DNA of 57,710 bases. Origin: Dimargaris cristalligena (lineage: Eukaryota). The position numbers and the translations under genes were made by a program. The stretch spans positions 1 to 57,710 of the forward strand of contig ML002251.1 of the NCBI GenBank assembly GCA_003614675.1. The letters run 5' to 3'. Below, piece by piece: positions 2,913 to 51,081 of the stretch (within the stretch, counting starts at the first letter, position 1; every line of letters begins with the position of its first letter). The notes under the pieces were generated by a model. That model had not been told where the DNA came from. It ran no database searches and saw nothing but the letters and a program-made list of their open reading frames with translations.

Positions 2913-3816
2913 TTAAGCCACATTGGCCTTCTTGAGGATTTCCTCGACCATGGGCGATCCCGGGCTGCGCATACCCTTGGGTACGGCAGGGCGGGCCAGG
3001 ATGCGCTTCATCCACGCCTGAACATTTGGTAGGTCCGAAATATCAATTTCAGCGTACCCGTGGCACGCAACCCAGCTAAAGTTGATGATGTCGGCCAAAC
3101 TGTACTGGTTGTTGACCAAGTAGTCCTGGTTAGCCAGGCGCCGCTCGAGCACACCGTACAGGCGGCGGGTCTCATTGGTGTAGCGGGTGATGCCGTATTC
3201 GTTTACTTCGGGTGCGGAGCGTCGGAAATGACCGGCCTGACCCTGCATGGGTCCAATTCCGCCCATCTGAAACATGATCCACTGGGTCACTTCGGACTGG
3301 AGTTTAGGGTCAGCGGGCCACAGCTTGTGCTCCGGGTCGTAGTGTTCACCCAACCAGAGCAGAATGGCCCCAGACTCAAAGATGGGGAAGTCGCCGTGCT
3401 TGTGATCAATAATGGCGGGAATGCGTCCGTTGGGGTTGATCTTGAGGAACCACTCCTCTTTCTGCACGTTGGTACTAATGTCAAGGGATTTGAGCTCATA
3501 GGGGATTCCGAGCTCTTCCAGGGCGATGGTCACCTTCCATCCATTGGGGGTGGCTGCATGGTTTTAGGAATAGCAAGGATAAATTCCACGCAGAAGATGC
3601 GATTGGGGCTCAGCATTAGCAATTGGTTATAATGGAATAGTATATCACTCTCAACTGTGGCCAGAGCGGATACAAGTACCTGTAGTCTGGCATGGGCACC
3701 TTGATAAGAGAGGGTCGATTGCATTTGCTAAAATCGAACTACGACGGGGATATCATCCCTACAAACTTACCGGCGGTGTAGAGAGTAATGGGGGCTTTGG
3801 AAGTGGACGAAGACAT
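2913..3816 (-). CDS. Glutathione S-transferase (Ure2p/YfcG-like), 2 exons: 3816-3771 and 3553-2913
   Basis: Splicing the GT-AG intron 3770-3554 gives MSSSTSKAPITLYTAATPNGWKVTIALEELG. Motifs INPNGRIPAI, FESGAIL and YSLADI are present. Confidence 0.93.
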
Positions 3817-5350: not shown

Positions 5351-6639
5351 CTAAAATAATGTGGAAGGCCAATGGAGCAGATTAGGTGATTTTTTGAGAG
5401 TAGATTGGTTCTGATAATTGGCATAGTTATTGAGATGGGCTGTCACCCTGGTCAATTAACTTTGACCTGATACTGCCCCGTAAACTCCCCTGACAATCCC
5501 AGGTGACTTCCAACACCCCCATGCCGTCGATAGAAACAACTGACATAACTGATATGCTCTTAACCTATTTACCTATTTATCTGCCTACTATTTACTTAAT
5601 GACTGTCAGACGGCCATCCCATCCTACGCCATCCGCGTATACGGTTCTCCTTTATAGGAGTGGCCCAGCGCATAAAACGAGGGGCACTTAGTTCTCTTAC
5701 CTCCTTAGCTCAGTTACGTTTATTTATGATACAATATACCCGTTATGCCCCTCTCTCCCATCCGAGCCAGTAAACCTATTTGTGACATCCCCTGATTGCT
5801 ATCACCTTGTTAAAAAATATGTCCCGACGGGCATTTTATCCTATCCTATATCTGCCAATTATGTTAGCTTATTTAGTTATCATAATGCCACTCATTTTAA
5901 TCATTTATAATTCGCCCCACCGATTATACTATTCAATAAAACTAGCCGCCTAAAGCCACCTACCGTCCTCCAGACGCTTTCTTCCTTTACTTACAGTTTA
6001 ATTACTTCGTTTCTGTATTCCAACATATTTAATAGAATGCATACTAATTAGGAGAATTCTGGGAAGTCCTGTTGGCGAATCGACCTAGAAGTTAACCATT
6101 TTAATATCGGGACATATTTCATGAAGTTGGGTATCCGAAGAGGACAAATCCAGGGGGTCTCTTTTATGGTATTTATCGGTGGTTGGCATTTATGAACTGA
6201 ATTATAAATATATGATGACCTAAGGGTGGTGTTCTAACCGGAGGCGGGTGCCAATGGGTTTATTGACGTAAACTAACAGGAAATAAGTTGATGAATCCCA
6301 TGTCGAAACCCTCGAGGGAGTATTTATATGTGAGGATGACACGTGGTGGTTTATCTGGGAATGGTGGTAGTGGCACTAGACATTACCCGCTACTATATAC
6401 TAAGATCTGATAGGAACTAGAGGAGCCTTTAGAATAATTATAAGGACATGATGGAGAAATCTTTTAGGTATCAACTAGGAATGAATAAGTGGGCATTATG
6501 GAACTGGATGTTGCCTTGGGGAAATTGCTGTTACAATAATGATTTATTCGAGTTTCAACTAAGGCAAGGGGGCTAGGTATAATAGCAAGATTGTAAAATA
6601 GAAATAATGAAGAGATTCAATAATTCAAACTGGTTTACT

Positions 6640-7685
6640 TTAGCAGGAAATTGAGAGTGTATTAAGGTTGCAATACTTTATCCAAAACTCCGTACGTCTT
6701 TCATTTGATTTCTTCACATGCTTATCTACAAATTTTCTGATGTCTTCAATAGCATTCCTCATGAGAATCTTACGAATAGTTAGGTATAGTGAACCCCGTC
6801 TAAGAAGCTGAAACAGGTCTTCGCAGCGGTAGCCATTTTCGTCGGTCAAATCCTGAATCGTACTGGTCTGGTAGCTGGTATCCCAATCCAACGTGTACAT
6901 AAAGTGGGGCCTCGGTGGCTCTTCTGTAATATCAATATACACCCGGGTAGTTTTGCTTGCTGAGTATTTTCGCATGGCTGCTGTATTCCCTCTACCAATA
7001 GCTGAAAGAACATCTTTAAATAGTTTCATTATATGGTCACTTAAGACCGACAGCATTGGGCTTTTGCTATTATATAAGGGAACACCCTTCATAAGGTTCA
7101 GCGGGAATACCAGCTTTGATTGAGTTTGGCAGTCCTCAAAGACCTTGGTGATGATTTCTTGTTCCCAGTGGTCTAAAGGCCTAGAGGTTCCGGGCTACAC
7201 TTGGAATGCAGAAGGCCTCCTGGTCGTGAAAATTGATTTTCCCAGGTTGAAATTCGGAAGGTTGAGTTGCTGAGCTGGGGCTGACTGGTAACTGGACACT
7301 GTTCGGAATTGAAGCTGCCACTTTGGAATAGGCCTTGGGTTTGAAGGTAGGCTAAAGTAGCATTCCAATCGAGATTGTAAGGGTCCACGTGACTATCATC
7401 AGCGAACTCTGAGCCGTCAGTAACAATTGCCGGGTTTTGTCACCAATTGATATAGTCAGGGCCAGGGTGACCAACATTGGCAAGTTCCGGGATACTGTAA
7501 AGATCCGTCACAATAATTAGCCATTTTTCATCAACCATTTCACTTTGACTACCAGTGTTATGTGGTGGGTTTGGCAATAAGCTATTAGACTGGCTAGATA
7601 ACAGGGTGTCCATAGCTGACAACAAGGAACTGACCATTAGGTATGCCATTGCCCAGCCAGTTTTACCAATGATTATTTTGGACAT
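6640..7685 (-). pseudogene. Disrupted lineage-specific gene, possibly secreted
   Basis: ORFs 7440-7685 and 7173-7388 share a frame and are separated by one TGA. A shifted frame is open from ~7194 to 6643. The N-terminus is hydrophobic (WAMAYLMVSSLLSA). Confidence 0.45.
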
Positions 7686-9514
7686 TGCTATTGGATAATT
7701 GGAAAGTTGAGACTAGGTGGAATGGAGATAATACACATGTAAGGTGATATACCAAAAATAAGGATGTAAATCCTGTTGAAGGTGTGGTGGGGAAACTTAC
7801 AAATATGACTAAGGTACAGTAGAAATGAAAAATAATAGAAAAGAATAGAATAGTGAGTTTCTTAGATAAAAGGTAAAAGTATTTTATCCGCCTTTTATTA
7901 TTACTTGGCAGGCATAAAGTGTAAATACTATTTGACCCTATGCATAAACCTGCTATTGTTTCAGTGGAAAGGTTGCATGGTTCAAGTGGTATAGACCCAT
8001 TTCAACTAATGTGGCTTTTGAGATAAATACATAAATGTATATAAATAATAGACATTAGTAAATATATATTAGTAATTTTATCCCTTGTTACCCAGGTTAA
8101 TCACTCTTAGTCCATCAAGAGTCCTGAGGATAGGCTTCTAATAGTAGGCAAGGCTTAGGCTCAGCCAGGTGGGCTACTAGCATCAGGTACAGGCACAATA
8201 CTAACTAATAAAGGCTACAGTAGGTATATACAAGGGATGTACAGTGGGCACACTTATTAGTCAATATAAGGGGAGTGAGTATATATAAAGTTTATTAGGG
8301 GTAAGCTAGGGGTAAGAAGTAAGCTAAGGAATTTAACTGGTCCCAATGGGGCCTAATTATATATATGTAGGGATAACTCTAGAGTGAGGTCCCAAGGGAA
8401 GGATACTACTAAGACTAAGGTATAGATAAATGGGCCAACCAGATAGTCATAGGTATCCAGAAGAGTCTTTGGATCAGTACTTGAGTGATTAGTATGAATA
8501 GGTAGAGTCTGGAAGAGGGAGGGTTATATGATAAGTGATAATCCTATAGTGCTGGGGGTAACTATAGGAAGGTTAATATGGTGCTATACAGCCTAATATA
8601 GTTAGATGTCTAAGCTGGCCTGATTAGGATGGATTAGATGGTCCAATACCCCTATCCTAGATTCAAAATATACAAATTTGATGGGGAGAGGGTCTTAAGT
8701 GGAAAGGAACTATTGTACCTAGCTACAACCAGTTTTAATTTAAGCTGCAGCATTTTACAACTTGAGTTTGTCAGTATCAGATTCCAACATATTAGGCCTC
8801 TCTAAATTTACATTGCACTTAGATAAACACTTGTTATCTTTAGAGTTGGGGAGGTGGGGTGGAGTATACAGCTTTCTATTGACAAAGCCCTATAATCAAA
8901 GTGCTCATTGTCCCCTGTTGGCCCTCCTCCACATAAAACTATGCATGCTAATGGCCACCTCCCATTCATGTAACACACAGTCCTGCTCTAAGCCCTCTTC
9001 TCCTTGCTGTTCACTGGGGGCTCTTCTCAACTCTCCCACTCTAATATACAGTCCCTTTCTTCTAGGTTTTCATCATGTTATACTGGTGGGTTTTACTAGG
9101 TCCTTGCCCTTTTTTTTCTTTAGTCACTCAACATCTGATATTATTCCTGCAAGTCCCATTCATTGGGACTAGTATGTTTTTGAGCTGTAGCATCCCATCA
9201 GTTTAATATACTTATCATGGTGTATTAGTATAATATGCTCAGATAGTGATTTTAGCAATAATTTTAAATCAGCCAATGTTCACTGAGGCATACTACTCTA
9301 GATTAGGCCAATTTTGACATTTATAATAGATAAGCGCATAGTCTGTAGTAAATGGCTACAAAGTGCCCTAGTTTACTAGTAACCTGCTGGAAGGATTGGG
9401 TAAAACTAGTAATAAATTTAAATATTGCATTATAATTGCTATATAACTCTAGAATGGCTGATTAGCCCACTGACTAAGTCTGGCTCTTTGTCCCTTTATT
9501 TCTAATATTATATA
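7508..9514. other. AT-rich, CpG-depleted, TpA-rich decayed tract
   Basis: By eye only two CpG (7889, 9335) in ~2 kb and none in 7891-9334. No credible ORF. Confidence 0.8.
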
Positions 9515-16007: not shown

Positions 16008-18557
16008 ATGGCCACCCTCGACAACGCGCAATACGAGCGGGACCTGGTCGGAGTGGGCACCCAATTCGGGGTGGCAAGTGTCATTATGGTCACTTGTTTC
16101 CACCTCTTCGAAGTCCTCCGAAAGCGCCCCCGCTTCCAGCACCTTTTCACCGCCCGCTGTCGCCTTATCCGAAATCCCACCCCGGCGATTCCCTCCGGCA
16201 TATACTCTTGGCTTCCCGCCGTGTGGAAGCTCGACGAAAAGTTTTACTACACGCACGTCGGACTTGACGCCGTTATGCACCTTCGGTTTCTGCGTATGGT
16301 CGTCAAAATCTTCATCTTTACCTGCGTCTTCATTTTCACCGTCATTTTTCCCGTAAACTATCTGGTCCATAAGATGGGCGACGGCAAAGAAGTGAGCCAG
16401 TTCTCCGTATCCAATATCCCAGAAGGTTCCAACAACTTATGGGTGCATTTGACCTCCATGTACGTCTTTTGCATCTTTATCCTATACCAGTTTCACCGGA
16501 ATAGCCTCGATTATATCAAAATGTTCAGCGACACTTTGGTCCTGAAGGTCCGGTCTGGCTCGGTGGTGCCCCGGTCGGTTCTCGTTTCCCGCATCCCACG
16601 CCACCTCCGTTCCGACGTAACTCTCAAGGCCTACTTTGAGGGGTTGGGCCTGGGCCCCATCGATACCGCCACCATTCTCAGGAACTATACTAAACTTAGC
16701 CGCAAGGTGACCCAGCGCAAAGCAACCCTACAGGCCCTCGAGCAATCCCACCTCGACCTTGCCCGAAGCTTTGTTCGACGGGCCCAGAGCGACCCCGACC
16801 TACTTGCCCCACTACCGGACGAATATGCGGACCGCGCCCCGTTTCATAACCAGGCTTGCGAAGACATGCAGCGCTATCTTTCCCTAATCAAACGCGGGCG
16901 GAAGGGCCATCGGGACCTCGAGGAACTTTTCCGCCAGGTGCCCCATTTCTTCTGGCGGGCCTTGGCTAATCTCCACCGCCCAGTCCTGGACGTGGCGCAG
17001 CCCAAAATCCGGGTCAAGAATATCGCCGAACACGACTGGGACCCCGCCATCGATACCGATTTATTTAAATTGGCCAAACTCGAACGCCGCGTTCGCGCCC
17101 TGCGCCGCTCCGCCCGTGTGGCCGAGAATTTCAAGCCCACCCACTACGGCGTGGTGACTTTCCAAAACTACAACTCGGCCCAGGCCTGTATGCGGCTGCA
17201 GGTGTCTGGCCAGCTCCATTGCCTAGAGACCACCGTCTGCCCTGAACCGCGCGAGCTCCTGTGGTCCAATTTCCTAATGGATGAGCGCCAGAAATTCCTT
17301 CGCTCCGTTCTGGTCAACGCCGGCGTCTGGACCCTCATTATTATCTGGCTCATCCCCATGACCTCCTTCCTGGGTTTGGCCTCGCTGGATAAATTGAGTC
17401 AGCTGCTGCCCTTCCTCAAGAATCTCACCGTGAGTAACCTGTGGCTGGAGAATATCATCAAGCGCAACGTACCGTCGATGCTTGTTAGCCTGGCCATGGT
17501 GGTCTTACCCTTTATCGTGTTTACCATCTCGCGTATGCAGTATTTCCCATCGTACTCCGCCCTGGAGCAGATCGCCATCCAGCGGAATTTCTTCTTCGCC
17601 ATTTTCAACGTGCTCATCTTTTTCTGCATCGGTCCGCCCCTCATTGAATCCATCCGCAACTGGATTTTGGACCCCGTCGCCATCGTACGCCGTTTAGTCG
17701 AGTCGCTGGTCCAACAGGGCGACGCCTTCTTTATCAATTACGTCATTCTAACCTCATGTTCCCATTATCTTGAGCTGGCCCAGATCGGCGTGCCCCTCTT
17801 CAGCACCATCATTGCTGATAACCGCTGGCTCTTGTGCACCCCGCGCAAGGCCCAGCGGTATCGGTCGCCGTGGTCCTTCCCCTACTTTTACTACCTGCCT
17901 ACCCATTTGCTGATCTTCGTCATTACCATCACCTTCGCCGTCTTGTCCCCCTTCATAATTCCCTTCTCCCTGTTTTACTTCATGTCGGCCTATATGGTGT
18001 ACAAGCACCAGTTCGCCTACGCCTACGTAAAGCAATACGAGGCCAATGGTCGGTTCTGGATCGATATCATGAACTTTGGCATGTTTGGCGTTACCTTTGC
18101 CGTGCTCATGTTCGGCATCGTTATGGCCCTGAAGAAGTCCATTGCGATTGCCATCACCACTCTACCGCTATTTGTACTATGTATCTTTTTTGCCGTCTAC
18201 ATGCGACAGCATCTCTTCCCTCGTATGAAGTGCGTACCATTGGATCGGGTGCCTCAAGCCACCGGCTTCAATTCCGGGCTAGGCAAACCACCCGCCAATT
18301 TAACCGTTACCGACCCCGAGGGTCGACTCCAGCGCCACCTGTCGCCACTGGCCCCTAATTCCATTGCCCGACCGAACAGTCATCTGGGGGCCCAGCCCTT
18401 TACTAAGGCCAAGAACCGGCGCTCCACCCTGTCCCACTTCCCACCCCCTGATGTTGCCACACTAATGTCTTCATCGTTTGATCCCCGCTCGCCCGCTCTT
18501 CCGAGTACACTGCCCCCCCCCTGCCTCCTCCCAGTGTGCCGAAACGGATACCATTGA
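16008..18557 (+). CDS. CSC1: CSC1/OSCA/TMEM63 (Rsn1/Phm7-like) stress-gated cation channel, core ORF
   Basis: GLDAVMHLRFLR, SNIPEGSNNLWVHL, PEPRELLWSN, FFINYVIL and YVKQYEANGRFW motifs with about 11 hydrophobic segments. Confidence 0.93.
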   Translation: MATLDNAQYERDLVGVGTQFGVASVIMVTCFHLFEVLRKRPRFQHLFTARCRLIRNPTPAIPSGIYSWLPAVWKLDEKFYYTHVGLDAVMHLRFLRMVVKIFIFTCVFIFTVIFPVNYLVHKMGDGKEVSQFSVSNIPEGSNNLWVHLTSMYVFCIFILYQFHRNSLDYIKMFSDTLVLKVRSGSVVPRSVLVSRIPRHLRSDVTLKAYFEGLGLGPIDTATILRNYTKLSRKVTQRKATLQALEQSHLDLARSFVRRAQSDPDLLAPLPDEYADRAPFHNQACEDMQRYLSLIKRGRKGHRDLEELFRQVPHFFWRALANLHRPVLDVAQPKIRVKNIAEHDWDPAIDTDLFKLAKLERRVRALRRSARVAENFKPTHYGVVTFQNYNSAQACMRLQVSGQLHCLETTVCPEPRELLWSNFLMDERQKFLRSVLVNAGVWTLIIIWLIPMTSFLGLASLDKLSQLLPFLKNLTVSNLWLENIIKRNVPSMLVSLAMVVLPFIVFTISRMQYFPSYSALEQIAIQRNFFFAIFNVLIFFCIGPPLIESIRNWILDPVAIVRRLVESLVQQGDAFFINYVILTSCSHYLELAQIGVPLFSTIIADNRWLLCTPRKAQRYRSPWSFPYFYYLPTHLLIFVITITFAVLSPFIIPFSLFYFMSAYMVYKHQFAYAYVKQYEANGRFWIDIMNFGMFGVTFAVLMFGIVMALKKSIAIAITTLPLFVLCIFFAVYMRQHLFPRMKCVPLDRVPQATGFNSGLGKPPANLTVTDPEGRLQRHLSPLAPNSIARPNSHLGAQPFTKAKNRRSTLSHFPPPDVATLMSSSFDPRSPALPSTLPPPCLLPVCRNGYH

Positions 18558-24410: not shown

Positions 24411-25388
24411 TTACTGGAAAGGGGCGGCGGTCTTGCTCTTCTTGCACTTGCAGCGCTTCTTGCATTGACGAGTGGACTTCTTGCACTGACCCTTGGGAGG
24501 TGTCGTGGTAGTGGCTGGGGGAGTAACAGTATCGGTAGGGGTAGTGGTAGCGGCGGGCGGGGTGGCGACGTCGGTGTTAGCGGGGGCAGGGGTGGAGGTG
24601 GCGGCCACGGGAGTGGAGGAGGCGGGAGCGGCAGGGGTAGTAGAACCAGCGGGGGCAACGGGGGTGGTGATTTCGGCGACCGGCGCGGCAGCAGTAGTAG
24701 AAGTAGCTACAGCAGCGGGAGTGGAGCTGGCGGAAGCGACCGGGGCAGGGGTAGTGGTACCGGCGACGACGGGAGTGGAGGTCGAGGTGGTATTGACGGG
24801 CTGGGCAACCATCCGGTCCAATCCGGTGGCGCTCGCGGGAGCGGAAGCGCCCTTGGACTGTACCTTCAGGCCGTACTCGGTGTAGACGGAGCTACAGTCG
24901 GGGTAGTAAGCACCTTTGAGGTCACCGTCGTCCTTCTCGACCAGGAAAATGTTGGACCAGTAGTAGGGCTTACCACCGGTGTTACCGGAACCACACACCA
25001 TTTCGGCGTCGGTCATCATGGCTTCGTGGTGGGGTGGCGATTCGAACCACGCCTTGACCATCTCCTTGGCATTGTCGTATTGCTCACCGATGTTCTCCTT
25101 GCCGTTCTTCCACTCGGGCAAGTCCGTGGCGGACTGGAGACGGGCGAGGAGGCCGGGGGTACCGGTATCGTCACCTCCGTGGGTCATCCGACCCACCTTG
25201 GCTTGGACACCGGCTTGGTACTTCGAGACCGTGGAGATGCTCGGGTGGTACCGCAGCTCCGAACGTCCGTTCATGAGCCGGTAGGCGCTGTCATGACAAC
25301 ACACGGTGATGGGGTCCAGGTCGGAGTAGGCTTCGGTATTGCGGGCGGCCAACAAGGTACCAACTAAAGAGAGAGCAAACAACTTCAT
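24411..25388 (-). CDS. Secreted CAP/SCP-domain protein with Thr/Ala/Pro-rich stalk and Cys/Lys-rich tail
   Basis: Signal peptide MKLFALSLVGTLLAA; CAP motifs ENIG, MVKAWFESPPHHEAMM and YYWSNIF; TPAP-rich linker; tail CKKSTRQCKKRCKCKK. Confidence 0.85.
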   Translation of the reverse strand: MKLFALSLVGTLLAARNTEAYSDLDPITVCCHDSAYRLMNGRSELRYHPSISTVSKYQAGVQAKVGRMTHGGDDTGTPGLLARLQSATDLPEWKNGKENIGEQYDNAKEMVKAWFESPPHHEAMMTDAEMVCGSGNTGGKPYYWSNIFLVEKDDGDLKGAYYPDCSSVYTEYGLKVQSKGASAPASATGLDRMVAQPVNTTSTSTPVVAGTTTPAPVASASSTPAAVATSTTAAAPVAEITTPVAPAGSTTPAAPASSTPVAATSTPAPANTDVATPPAATTTPTDTVTPPATTTTPPKGQCKKSTRQCKKRCKCKKSKTAAPFQ

Positions 25389-28300: not shown

Positions 28301-29622
28301 AGTTGGTATCAGCTGCTCAATTTCAATACTAACGGGTGAGAAAAATCCAGGCGAGCCTTGGTTCTTGTTGGGCGATGCTCACGTAGTGTTGCCGCTCCCC
28401 AAAACCCATATACCTATTGTTGTTCGCATCAAAAATATATATATATATACCCAAACACCCCCTTCCCCCCTATACAGCACCACAGCCTACGATTACCCCC
28501 GCTTGTATCTGCCAGTCAATGAATGACAAGATAGACCCATTTTCATGGAACCTTTCATTATTGGCGGTGGCCTTACAAAACCCGTATTTTGCACAGCGCA
28601 GGTCCTTCTGCCTGTGCAGCCTAACTTTTTGGCAATAAGTCAAATTCGACTAAAACTACCGCAACTGCTACCAGCAATCCTTGCCCCCATGGGCTCTTTC
28701 AATTTGGTATAGTGGCCATTAGGAAAAGGCCCAAAGTGGCATAGGCTATATTATTTATCCGAAATCAGCCGCAAGGCAGCCTCCGACTAAATAAGGGCTC
28801 TCATCAGACAATAGTCCAAGTGATAGGGATTTGTCAAGGCGTAAATCCAATCGGTGTTATACTCAGCGGTAGCTATCAATTTCTACATTAAAGCCGCCAT
28901 TAATCTAAACCTGGACTGGGATCTCTAAATCAAGGGGCCGAGAGCAAACGGGAAAGCGAGGGAGAGTGTGTATATATGTGGGTATGGGTGCGTAATAATA
29001 ATGTTAATGGTAGATATATTCAGCCGTGGTCCTCCGGGTTCCGGCCCCGCCCAGCCGCCCTTTTCCTGTCGGCTTCATGTAAGGGTGCGTGGTCTGGGCA
29101 CCCGCTGGTTATGCCATTACACCGTCTGGAACATCTAAGCCGACCCTTCCATCTAGCCCAGTCTGCGATTGTAGGCGTCCGCACCTAGACCCTGGGTTTT
29201 CTCTGTTCGGTGTTCATAATCCACCAAGTCCGTGGTCCCGATAGACGCCCGCCAATTCCGTGGAATATCTGGGAGAGGATCCTCCGGGTTCAGCTCTGCT
29301 ATCACCACCACCTATCGGATTTAGCAATACCAATTGCAAGATGGAGAGGGGATCCACGCCAAGCTATGATGAGCAGAATGGCTTAGGAATGTAGCGGTGT
29401 TGTACTTTGAAGGCAGCGGATCCCAACCGCCTGAACATCCGGCTCAACGATGGCCCCTACTGTTCACTAACTGGTATAGGGTGGCTCGTCTAGTTTACGT
29501 ATAGCAAGCAGCCCACTGGACTCCTAACACTCAACCACCGGTTACTCCGGCTATTCAAGAACCCACTCCATCACCCGTTTCAAGGCATTGGGCTCAGGTA
29601 CAATAAGAGAAAGGTCCAACTA

Positions 29623-30058
29623 GGCTGTATACCGAACTATCCGTTGGATGAGGTAATCGTTTCCGGTTAAAATGGAATCATTCGTCTAATCCCTCATACA
29701 CATATCATTTAAACCCTTATACAGCCAGGTCGAACCCCACCCATATTATTTCACGAGACCAACTCCATCTCCGAAAACTGGACCAAGGTGGCCTACAGCG
29801 CCACCGTGTGTGTGTGTGTGTGTGTGCGCTCACTCTGCTCTCGGTATTATCCCCCCTGCTCTAAGTCCATTTCACTATACCCCATTAGGCATCCATACCT
29901 TGCTTTCTGTAAGCCCATCGTTGATTGTTTGTCTGCGCATCCTTTCTTCAATATCGCCGTGTTATCAGGATTCGCCGCTTTCCATGGGTCACTCCTGATG
30001 GACCAACAAAGAATCAAGGGTTAGGGAACGCCGTTCCATATTCTTCGAGTGGGCTATA
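29623..30058 (+). mobile_element. MITE-like dispersed repeat, copy 2 (right end uncertain)
   Basis: TAGGCTGTATACCGAACTATCCGTTGGATGAGG...CATACACATATCATTTAAACCCTTATACA aligns with copy 1. The end TTCGAGTGGGCTATAGT resembles copy 1 TTCGGTTAAGCTATAGT. Confidence 0.55.
29806..29826. repeat. (GT)n microsatellite
   Basis: Read directly from the sequence. Confidence 0.9.
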
Positions 30059-41663: not shown

Positions 41664-44142
41664 ATGAGTCGCCCATTTCCCTTGCTGGTCCCAATTAAGG
41701 CTGACCTTACCGAATATAGGGGTTTTATCACCTTAGGGGTAAGCATTTCTTTTTTTATACTGGCTTTATATAGCGGGTAAACTAAGGGCCTTGGGTCCAG
41801 GGAGGGTCGTCATTCCCGTTGGAGGCTCGAAGTAGCAATCGTTTTACCGTGGCTTCTCCCCTAGTGGGTTTAGTACAGTCCGTCCACCCGGCGGGGTACC
41901 TCCTGTTTTCCCAACCCCATGTCTTTTCCCCAGCCTTACCAGGCAACCTGGCTCTAGTTGTGTTAACGGTGCTATAACTAGCATCCATAGCGAGTATTTT
42001 ACCCCACGATTCACACCGTCTCGCTCTAGCCCTTCGAGGTGTATAGCACTGGAGCCAGCCCACATCTCTCTACTACACTTCTGCATTGGCCTGATCGTAA
42101 AATCCCAAGGCACTACTAAATGGTTCTCTCAGGAATTACTGCTGCGTTACTTGTGTATATCTTAATACCAACCTCACTAATTAGAATGAACGGTACTTGG
42201 CCCACGTGGTCGTTCCGGGGGGTCGCCTGGCGGATCTTATCATTCGTTCCGACAGGAAATTGGGGACCTTGCTTGCTGACCATAAAGCCCTGATTAAACA
42301 GCGCTTAACTCAATGTAAAAACCTGGAAGCCTTTTGGATCGACTTACGTGATATTCTGGTAGGTTTCCCCCCAAAAAATCAAAAGTGAAATGGGGGGAAT
42401 AGTGGCAATGCATAGGCTTAAAATGGTGTTTATTGATACACTTTTGGGGCCATCTATATACCCAGGAGCTCACTTCCATTATCCCTGAGGGTTACGTCCT
42501 AAATAAGGTGTTCAGTAAACTAATGTGATTTACACTTACTTTATTCATGCATACCCTTATTAGGAGAAGGCTAAGCCGGCTGGGGCAGTCGCAGATTCGG
42601 GTAGTAAAGCTATTGATCCTGCTCGGCTAGAGACCATTATGGCCAATATGGACCACATTGGATGGGATTCGCTAGTGGAAATTGACCAAGAATTCACTCG
42701 CTTGACTTTACAATTTAGGTAAGTGTGCCTTTTATCAATACAAGCTCCTTAAGGATATATTTGTAGGTGTTGAAAATATCTTACAAATTAGCTACTGTAG
42801 ATGGTAACATACTTTTGGTTGGGATCTCTTGCTATTTATATAAATATATATGCATTTGATGAAATAATCGGGAAATCTCGGTTGATAAAGAGATACACGG
42901 GAACGGAGTCATTTGGTTCACATTACTATCTCGTCCGATTTTCCAGCACAGCCTCCATCGTTCCAAACCGAATTACCCGAGTCCTTCCTTATTAGCGAGA
43001 GTCAGCCGGATCAGTGGTTCGCTAACATACTTCGTGGTGTTCAGGAGGTAGGTCAAGATATGTACTCAGAATCTGTTTTGCCGGCCCCTCAGTATAAACA
43101 AATACGATGGGTCAATCGACAATACTTAAAAAAGGCTGGGCTCACTTGAGCCTCAGTACTTTCGACACCATTTCCCAGGTTGTTAACGCATCATGCCTCA
43201 CATTCGAACCGAGGCCGTATATCCCATTTCCGGCAATTCCTTTTCTTTATGCGCGATTTGACATGGCTGACTAGATCACGGTCCGTTACCAGGATGCGTG
43301 GGATGTGCTGGATGATATTGATCGCGATTTATGGGTCTTAGAACCCCGAGATCAACTTTATGGCACCATGACCCGCCGAATTGCCTTGGAGCAACTCTGT
43401 TCCTTGGAACTTACAATTGATCCCCAGGCCCCACTCGACCGCCCCCGCCTGCGTCTCTACGGGACGGATGTATACCTCCAGCCCCTGCGCCAGCGACTGC
43501 GCAACCCCGCCCCCACCACTATGACCGGTACCCCGGTCGGAACAGGAAGAAACGAATGGGGAGATGGGAGTAAATCGGACAAGGCGGAGTTCAGTCTACG
43601 CCGTAATCTCGAATGTCTATTGGGGATTAAGCTACCCTCCAAACGGAGTGGCAACGCAACCGAGGCCGGGGACCTTGGCGAAACCGAGGAGTTCAGTACC
43701 GAGTGTGGAATTTGCTACAGCTACGAAGTAAAAGGAGTGGTCCCGGATCAGTTGTGCCAAAACCCCAAATGCCACCGGCCATTTCATCACCAATGCTTGG
43801 TGGATTGGCTGCGGGCGGACCCGTCGTCACGCCAGAGTTTCAGTATTATATTCGGAGACTGTCCATACTGTAGTGAAGTAAGTATAGTCACTAGGGCTTT
43901 TCTGACACTATGCTGTGCATATTAGGATAGATGGTCGAATCTGGGGCTATTTAATGTATCTAATACCACCACCACTGGCACGCTTTCTATGTCTGTCTTT
44001 CCCAATTTACCCTACTCTGACCGTACATCAGTTGATGGATGAGCCTCTCAGTGTATTTTAACCCTGGCTTTACAATGATGTTTTTCCGTTGGGACTATTA
44101 CACTTTAACTAGGAAATGTCGGTTTCCATGATGCTGACCTAA
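41664..44142 (+). CDS. FANCL: FANCL E3 ubiquitin ligase, exons 41664-41738, 42185-42358, 42564-42718, 42891-43047, 43275-43877, 44113-44142
   Basis: N-terminal FPLLVP...YRGFI; ELF/URD segments IKQRLTQC, IGWDSLVEID and WDVLDDIDRDLWVLEP; RING CGICYSY...PDQLCQNPKCHRPFHHQCLVDWLR...SRQSFSIIFGDCPYC. Confidence 0.93.
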
Positions 44143-49935: not shown

Positions 49936-50160
49936 GGCTATAGCCGAATGGTCCCGAAAGACGGCCAGGACAAATAAAATGAAAAACTCGAAGTAGGGAT
50001 AGGGGTATAGGGGAAGAATAGAGGGGATTGGAGTAGAAATGGGTGAAATTCGGCCCAGCTATATCAGGGCTTACATTATACGTGTATGGGAAAATAGATG
50101 GGAAATGTATTTTTAACTAGTAATATTGGCCGAATCTAATGGATTTTTCGTTATACAGCT
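49936..50160 (-). mobile_element. MITE-like dispersed repeat, copy 3 (shorter, reversed)
   Basis: Reverse complement AGCTGTATAACGAAAAATCCATTAG...GGGCCGAATTTCACCC matches copy 1. The other end TA|GGCTATAGCCGAA is an imperfect inverted repeat. Confidence 0.6.
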
Positions 50161-51081
50161 TGGATGAACTTCTCCCAAATTGAATCCAGCATAGCGGCAG
50201 AGTCAGGTGGATGTATATGTGTAAATCGACCTATTTTGGGACCCGCCATCATATCGCCCTTGGGTGTTGCTTAGGCATGGCTAATTGGATTCAAGCCTTC
50301 ATTAGCGTAACTGTATCGGTAATAAGCGGGGGCCCAGGCTTCTCGGTTTGGTACGCCATTGGAAGGAAGGCTTATTGAACATTCTCGTTATTAATCTTCC
50401 AGCTTGAGAGATTCGGTCCAACAGTAGAATTTAATCCTCCCTACGCGGACTCTTAGTAATACCAGTTAGTCGAACTGAGTAAGCCCTGCCTCCCTTTCCG
50501 GTGGAAATGCCTTGCGCCGGTCGACCCTATCAAGTCCGGACTGGGAAGCCTCGACCGCATTTTTCCCGTTGATGGTTCGGTAGCCAATGCTACCGTTTTA
50601 GACCAACTAAATGGCAGATCAGCGCAAACACCCTCCGAATTTACTCCCCAGCCCTTCCCAGATATCAGGGCCATGTGCACTTAATTGGAACCCTCCCCCT
50701 TCCTAATCGAAAGAAGGGTGTGGGTAGTATGGAATATAATAGTATACGAGTTTGGTTCCGATGGCCACGAATAGCATGGCTTTGTTTTCTAGGGGATACT
50801 AACAAAACCCATTAATAAAAAAAACCCTTAAAAACATGAGGAGGAGGGTCGTGGGGAGAATGCGTAGTGGCCATGGAAAAGCCGAATCCCAAAGGGGAAT
50901 CATGGGCTGTTCCGATGGCCTTATTTTGACAAGCGGATACGGCGAGGAATTCCACTGAATCGCAATGCGAATCCCCACGCCAATCGTCAGACGCACAAAA
51001 ATCCAACTGTCCCGATTTTGTATTTATACCCAGGGTCACCCCGCCATATTGGCCGAATTCTATTGAGAAGGTCATATTCTC

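Follow-up and report, generated by a model that had tools for sequence, protein, structure and literature searches.

Introduction

The repeat decay described here most resembles that of fungi with a DNMT1/Masc2-type cytosine methyltransferase (Microbotryum, Melampsora and Puccinia), where CpG is likewise the main target and mutation is confined to repeats and their surroundings (PMC4352252; like the other papers cited by PMC number, represented here by excerpts). According to those excerpts, a CpG signature goes with Masc2-type DNMT1 and is the only signature of DNMT1-only species, while a CpA signature occurs only in species with RID/Masc1. RIP in Neurospora crassa follows two pathways, with RID acting inside repeats and DIM-2 in their flanks (PMC12543289), and in Zymoseptoria tritici it is Dim2 that drives the mutation of CA to TA in mitosis (PMC8016269). 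Around older Alu elements, CpG loss spreads into the flanks (PMC7431005).

Among early-diverging fungi, Zoopagomycota are described as 5mC-poor, and almost all 5mC lies in repeats in both Phycomyces and Linderina, the latter from the same subphylum as Dimargaris (PMC11258239). Entomophthorales show RIP-like indices, with caveats (PMC11105155), and D. cristalligena itself has been scored no_rip, at a BUSCO completeness of 79.5% (PMC12543289 supplement). Our search, which had most subscription journals outside its reach, found no literature on repeat decay in Dimargaris. Clutterbuck reportedly published on CG deficiency in basidiomycetes and lower fungi, as the title of that paper indicates.

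Results

A 2-kb tract nearly free of CpG

The window, meaning the whole stretch of DNA that was analysed, comprises 57,710 nucleotides of Dimargaris cristalligena. Within it, the tract at 7508-9514 (2007 bp) holds two CpG, at 7889 and 9335, where base composition predicts 69, and the stretch 7891-9334 holds none. CpG o/e is 0.03 in the tract and 0.81 in the window, across which the next-lowest 2007-bp segment reaches 0.57 and the longest CpG-free gap outside the tract is 171 bp. The original prediction, made by eye, of a near-absence of CpG in DNA where G and C remain common and TAG words are frequent was borne out, with GpC o/e at 1.03, GC content at 37% and TAG at 30.9 per kb versus 15.3 in AT-rich control stretches (about 2-fold). 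The RIP indices it proposed are weak in the tract (TpA/ApT 1.20; (CpA+TpG)/(ApC+GpT) 1.14); we do not use them as evidence because young, CpG-rich copies of the repeat described below are already skewed (TpA o/e 1.64, CpA+TpG o/e 0.79).

In three public runs, which come from two studies and one of which may be the window's own source, single long contigs span both flanks within the tract. At the flanks two of these contig sets are identical to the window and the third, X5, differs by scattered SNPs only. This continuous coverage indicates that the tract is real sequence and not an assembly artefact.

A putative solo LTR at the tract centre

8086..8648, + strand as drawn: solo-LTR-like high-copy repeat, 563 bp, no CpG (ends from copy alignment)
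8081..8085, + strand: left target-site duplication, 5 bp (4/5 bases match the right copy)
8649..8653, + strand: right target-site duplication, 5 bp (4/5 in the window)

A search for other copies of the tract returned at least 56 matches in its own genome, 77-85% identical, from the 40 of 856 candidates that were scored, and all non-self matches were confined to window positions 8085-8650. The flanks are not high-copy, which excludes the whole tract as a repeat. The proposal of a hypermutated repeat therefore stands for the 563 bp that are repetitive and bear C-to-T changes, and fails for the rest of the 2007 bp, which is host DNA.

The repeat starts with TG and ends with TA in the window copy and with CA in 15 of the 23 scored copies; its 5-bp duplication, imperfect in the window, becomes 5/5 in run X5, which has T at 8649. 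TG...CA ends with a 4-6 bp duplication characterise solo LTRs, and from these ends, the duplication and an empty site in a paralogue we call the repeat a solo LTR. A duplication matching at 4/5 or better was found in only 6 of the 23 copies with both ends scored, the other 17 lacking one. LTR copies often form inverted pairs 200-600 bp apart (L003, L004, L013, L015 and L017); with the missing duplications, these pairs possibly reflect ectopic recombination or nested insertion. Since such pairs occur on several contigs, we also weighed a terminal inverted repeat element, which the single window copy with its target duplication rules out. We found no parent gag-pol element with PBS and PPT in 20 of the 80 reverse-transcriptase loci, read with 1.5-kb flanks, nor beside the LTR copies read.

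CpG-rich copies of the repeat exist in the genome. Nearly all of these young copies (L054-L083) lie at contig ends, which makes both recent activity and under-assembly of the family probable. One LTR copy (L075:1501-2062) sits within DNA free of CpG, with a protease-like frame after it, and is apparently nested in another retroelement; elsewhere, a CpG-poor C2H2 zinc-finger frame adjoins a truncated copy (L038:270-797).

Host flanks and an empty-site paralogue

7508..8080, no strand: left flank, host DNA, CpG gone except 7889 (65-68% identical to paralogues C238, C9 and C1969)
8654..9514, no strand: right flank, host DNA, CpG gone except 9335 (paralogue alignment)
6640..7685, - strand: broken lineage-specific, probably secreted protein gene (tblastn with the intact C238 paralogue)

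The left flank holds the 5' end of a member of a secreted-protein gene family, together with the region upstream of that gene. The C238 paralogue (~65% identity) runs through the insertion point without the element, and positions 8685-9176 carry the alignment on past the empty site; two further paralogues match the left side only, and no match was found for 9177-9514. None of the paralogue's CpGs is kept in either flank (0/23 left, 0/11 right), and 22 of these 34 positions are now TG, CA or TA in the window. The gene body outside the tract keeps 16/52 (p=1.3e-4 against 0/34) and is itself somewhat CpG-depleted, with 26 window CpGs to 52 paralogue CpGs over aligned columns. The gene, whose first ~180 bp fall in the tract, is interrupted by one in-frame stop (7440-7442), changes frame twice in the region from about 7170 to about 7300, and gave no Pfam family.

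Run X5 comes from another study and probably represents another isolate. It differs from the window by at least 7 transitions in the flanks, 4 of them at CpA (CpA makes up 36% of flank cytosines), and outside the flanks by at least 9, 4 at CpG and 0 at CpA; these numbers are small. Positions 8820-8821 are CG in the paralogue, TG in X5 and TA in the window, a two-step change of which X5 shows the intermediate stage. The locus is useful because the empty-site paralogue and the second isolate let mutations be polarised.

CpG loss around other LTR copies

We measured CpG around 11 isolated old copies, drawn from 17 larger loci. Flank CpG o/e rose from 0.03-0.10 in the first 200 bp to about 0.3 at 200-400 bp, about 0.5 at 400-800 bp and 0.8 past 1 kb. 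Within 200 bp, old copies had 7 CpG in 3957 bp versus 78 in 3591 bp for 19 young copies, and old and young flanks were equal at 1-1.5 kb. These 19 young copies, whose flanks show a shallow CpG dip, are those of 30 that lie in CpG-rich surroundings; the 11 in CpG-poor DNA were left out of the comparison. CpG loss is confined to repeats and their flanks and graded by distance and age; none of the 11 other old copies has a zone as wide as the window's. A gradient that deepens with element age, also seen by empty-site comparison, is likewise reported for Alu (PMC7431005, excerpts); the Dimargaris zone is sharp and nearly complete, unlike that of Alu, because the fungal background is unmethylated.

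CpA change reaches less far. With increasing distance, TpA/(CpA+TpG), a compositional measure, falls through 1.40, 0.99, 0.77 and 0.64 in old flanks, and takes values of 0.79, 0.68, 0.60 and 0.67 in young ones, a CpA zone narrower than the CpG zone and nested within it. In the window's left flank, polarised changes show no significant CpA excess (CpA 11/44 vs CpC/CpT 10/51, p=0.62).

A dispersed repeat of ~140 bp, whose copies are ~75% identical to one another, occurs in the window at 2411-2551, 29618-29748 and 50040-50175, with a related piece at 5865-6026. Its copies hold 4-6 CpG each and have normal flanks; it seems that CpG loss spares short repeats.

Mutation spectrum inside the LTR

Allowing at most one mismatch, we found ninety copies with a CpG-bearing start motif, most of them at contig ends. 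We grouped copies as young (28), intermediate (20, from 19 loci chosen among 56 one-mismatch matches) and old (41), using CpG content or likeness to the CpG-free window copy; because this choice used CpG, the age series is partly circular for CpG, but not for CpA or the flanks. The reference was one young copy, restricted to sites common to a second copy, with 24 subfamily-like sites dropped. Our search found no CpG-rich 3' LTR ends, so the spectrum is well controlled over the first ~330 bp.

CpG was kept at 159/183 sites (87%) in young, 70/189 (37%) in intermediate and 9/349 (3%) in old copies, while CpA had become TpA at 3/278 (1%), 39/293 (13%) and 170/599 (28%), respectively. Old copies were mutated at 80/1292 CpC and 77/1313 CpT (about 6%); per-site medians were 0.27-0.31 for CpA and 0.03-0.05 for CpC/CpT, and pooled p-values are overstated because the counts share sites and ancestry. 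Ancestral CG in old copies (n=221) is now TG 74 times, CA 70, TA 58 and CG 8, so that CpG turns into both TpG and CpA, at a level that other contexts do not approach. CpG falls first: copies that have lost half their CpG show almost no CpA change.

Hidden ancestral CpG or a subfamily artefact does not account for the CpA excess, as removing such sites left CpA>TpA at 184/753 and 213/933 (23-24%), 4-6 fold over CpC/CpT. The terminal dinucleotides of an LTR have their starting state set by integration, and at the termini of old copies TG had become TA in 12/36 and CA had become TA in 6/16. Compared with one full-length reference, itself partly decayed, the window copy is changed at 16/44 CpA, 6/60 CpC and 8/54 CpT. 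CpA changes fall on both strands (0.33 vs 0.38), which rules out APOBEC-like or reverse-transcription editing, and intermediate copies also carry mutations on both strands. CpA was mutated in all contexts, and CpG decay showed no TpCpG preference (TCG 0.43 vs ACG 0.72 and GCG 0.62). Ti/Tv between LTR copies was 3.5. Among 40 old copies we detected neither strand coordination (chi2 20.7, 39 df; a weak test in saturated copies) nor CpA overdispersion (p=0.27).

Unpolarised CpA values were 0.54 vs 0.15-0.17 in the LTR family, and the excess was slight in pol regions (0.17 vs 0.10-0.16 in 10 pairwise alignments of coding, younger sequence); the stronger effect in the LTR could reflect dependence on copy number or pairing. 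With LTR references L072 and L075, CTG was mutated at 0.14-0.19 versus 0.02-0.07 for other CpT, and CAG more than CAA/CAC, at 2-4 sites each, which gives a weak hint of CWG methylation.

The methyltransferase complement

The genome encodes a DNMT1/Masc2-type gene with RFD, BAH and methylase domains (L023:6480-9770, contig C729). It is closest to the DNMT1s of Dispira, Dimargaris and Tieghemiomyces (75-79%), a similarity that places the host in Dimargaritales, Zoopagomycota, in line with the suggestion of an early-diverging fungus. The gene runs off the end of C729, and no other part of the assembly yielded its last ~435 residues. Searches of the fragmented assembly with PF00145, TIGR00675 and two DNMT1-class protein queries found neither RID nor DIM-2; their sole loci were DNMT1 and one short methylase, which from its size and motifs we take to be DNMT2-like. 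The proteome check set by the original prediction thus yielded DNMT1, while with these queries DIM-2 and RID did not appear.

Discussion

Our best reading is that methylation spread from a silenced LTR and that gradual 5mC deamination followed; the mutation pattern is read directly from the alignments, and from it and the gene content we infer the enzyme and the chemistry. An LTR retrotransposon would have landed 400 bp upstream of a host gene and later shrunk to a solo LTR, which may then have become a methylation centre for the DNMT1/Masc2-type enzyme whose gene is present. Methylation would have reached the flanks at falling density, with 5mC deaminating to T across many generations. As a strong target saturating even at low dose, CpG would be lost over 0.6-0.9 kb; CpA, an at least 5x weaker target, would change late, and no farther than 200-400 bp from the LTR or within it. 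A single gradient of methylation, acting strongly on CpG and less so on CpA, would explain the temporal order, the spatial nesting and the lack of bursts, and we put its probability at roughly 70%.

CpG erasure is most likely an established process, seen here in a lineage that has had little study. Like the DNMT1/Masc2 fungi, Dimargaris has an RFD-BAH-methylase gene, and its LTR Ti/Tv of 3.5 agrees with theirs; it differs in lacking a TpCpG preference and in belonging to Zoopagomycota. Of the two origins first offered, RIP-like or methylation-driven, the methylation branch holds, with gradual CpG decay dominant, and classical RIP is not supported. The locus shares with Neurospora RIP both-strand C-to-T change, a CpA-to-TpA excess in repeats (28% vs 6%) and leakage into flanks. 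It departs from it in that CpG dominates over CpA (9/349 kept, against 170/599 mutated), decay is gradual, clustered strand-coordinated bursts are not seen in the 40 old copies (where saturation limits power), RID was not found and young repeats survive. As to a homology trigger, the duplicated gene body keeps CpG at only ~67% identity and the 140-bp repeat escapes at ~75%. Both identities lie below usual RIP thresholds.

The sole unusual part is the CpA component without a detected RID. It occurs here although the excerpted survey ties a CpA signature to RID/Masc1 species, among them Tuber melanosporum, which has CpG plus CpA and RID (PMC4352252). If RID and DIM-2 are truly absent, the CpA class would break that reported link (PMC4352252) and offer a test case for the origin of RIP from methylation. 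The suggestion of a poorly described genome defence survives for this part alone, repeat-restricted 5mC being already reported in Linderina (PMC11258239, excerpts). On our best reading, the tract is also indirect evidence for heavy repeat methylation in Dimargaritales, though Zoopagomycota are called 5mC-poor (PMC11258239). What the locus contributes is an empty-site control, a second isolate and a nested CpA zone. Screens for RIP by k-mer enrichment miss such decay.

Two processes might instead be superimposed, a homology-dependent, RIP-like CpA mutation in high-copy repeats over ordinary CpG methylation decay in the repeat and flanks, a division that would parallel RID in repeats and DIM-2 in flanks of Neurospora. 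The CpA excess at sites without hidden CpG, on both strands and at the termini, fits this, as does its absence from the window's left flank, and the intact CpGs of the 140-bp repeat would suit a length threshold. We nevertheless consider it unlikely: CpG loss exceeds CpA change throughout, with almost no CpA change in copies that have lost half their CpG; strand clustering and overdispersion are lacking; the excess of TpA tapers off into flanks that are single-copy; the genome still holds intact reverse-transcriptase frames and repeat pairs of 90-98% identity; RID was not found, in a fragmented assembly; and the kingdom survey, as excerpted, scores the species no_rip (PMC12543289). Equally doubtful is a DNMT1-only Zoopagomycota fungus with a RID-independent, repeat-directed CpA mutator strongest on the highest-copy repeat. 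Such a mutator, if real, would be a RIP-like activity outside Dikarya and would place RIP chemistry in an ancestral DNMT1-type enzyme.

Somewhat less probable again is a DIM-2-like second methyltransferase missing from the assembly, or enzymatic deamination, adding a mitotic CpA class to DNMT1-driven CpG decay. Zymoseptoria offers the precedent of Dim2-promoted CA>TA in repeats without need of RID or meiosis (PMC8016269, excerpts), DIM-2 is reported from some early-diverging fungi (PMC7862722, PMC11258239; excerpts), and the assembly misses even the end of DNMT1. Against it, two profile searches and two protein queries returned DNMT1 and the one DNMT2-like locus only, and in Zymoseptoria, where Dim2 is present, CpG is spared, whereas here CpG is the main target and is erased, with DIM-2 not found. 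That the LTR landed in already CpG-poor DNA and did not cause the tract is very improbable: although 11 of 30 young copies have such surroundings, 9177-9514 has no paralogue and the zone is unusually wide, the paralogue retains CpG in the matching sequence, the LTR lies at the centre of the zone, which cuts across the duplicated segment, and old copies generally show the same gradient.

Other genes in the window

An exact look-up of three window frames gave no match. The window also carries genes for a glutathione S-transferase (2913-3563, - strand), an RSN1/TMEM63 channel (16008-18557, + strand) and FANCL (43275-43925, + strand). An ORF at 24411-25388 (- strand) encodes a signal peptide, a domain that by eye resembles CAP, a tail rich in Thr/Ala/Pro and an end rich in Cys/Lys.
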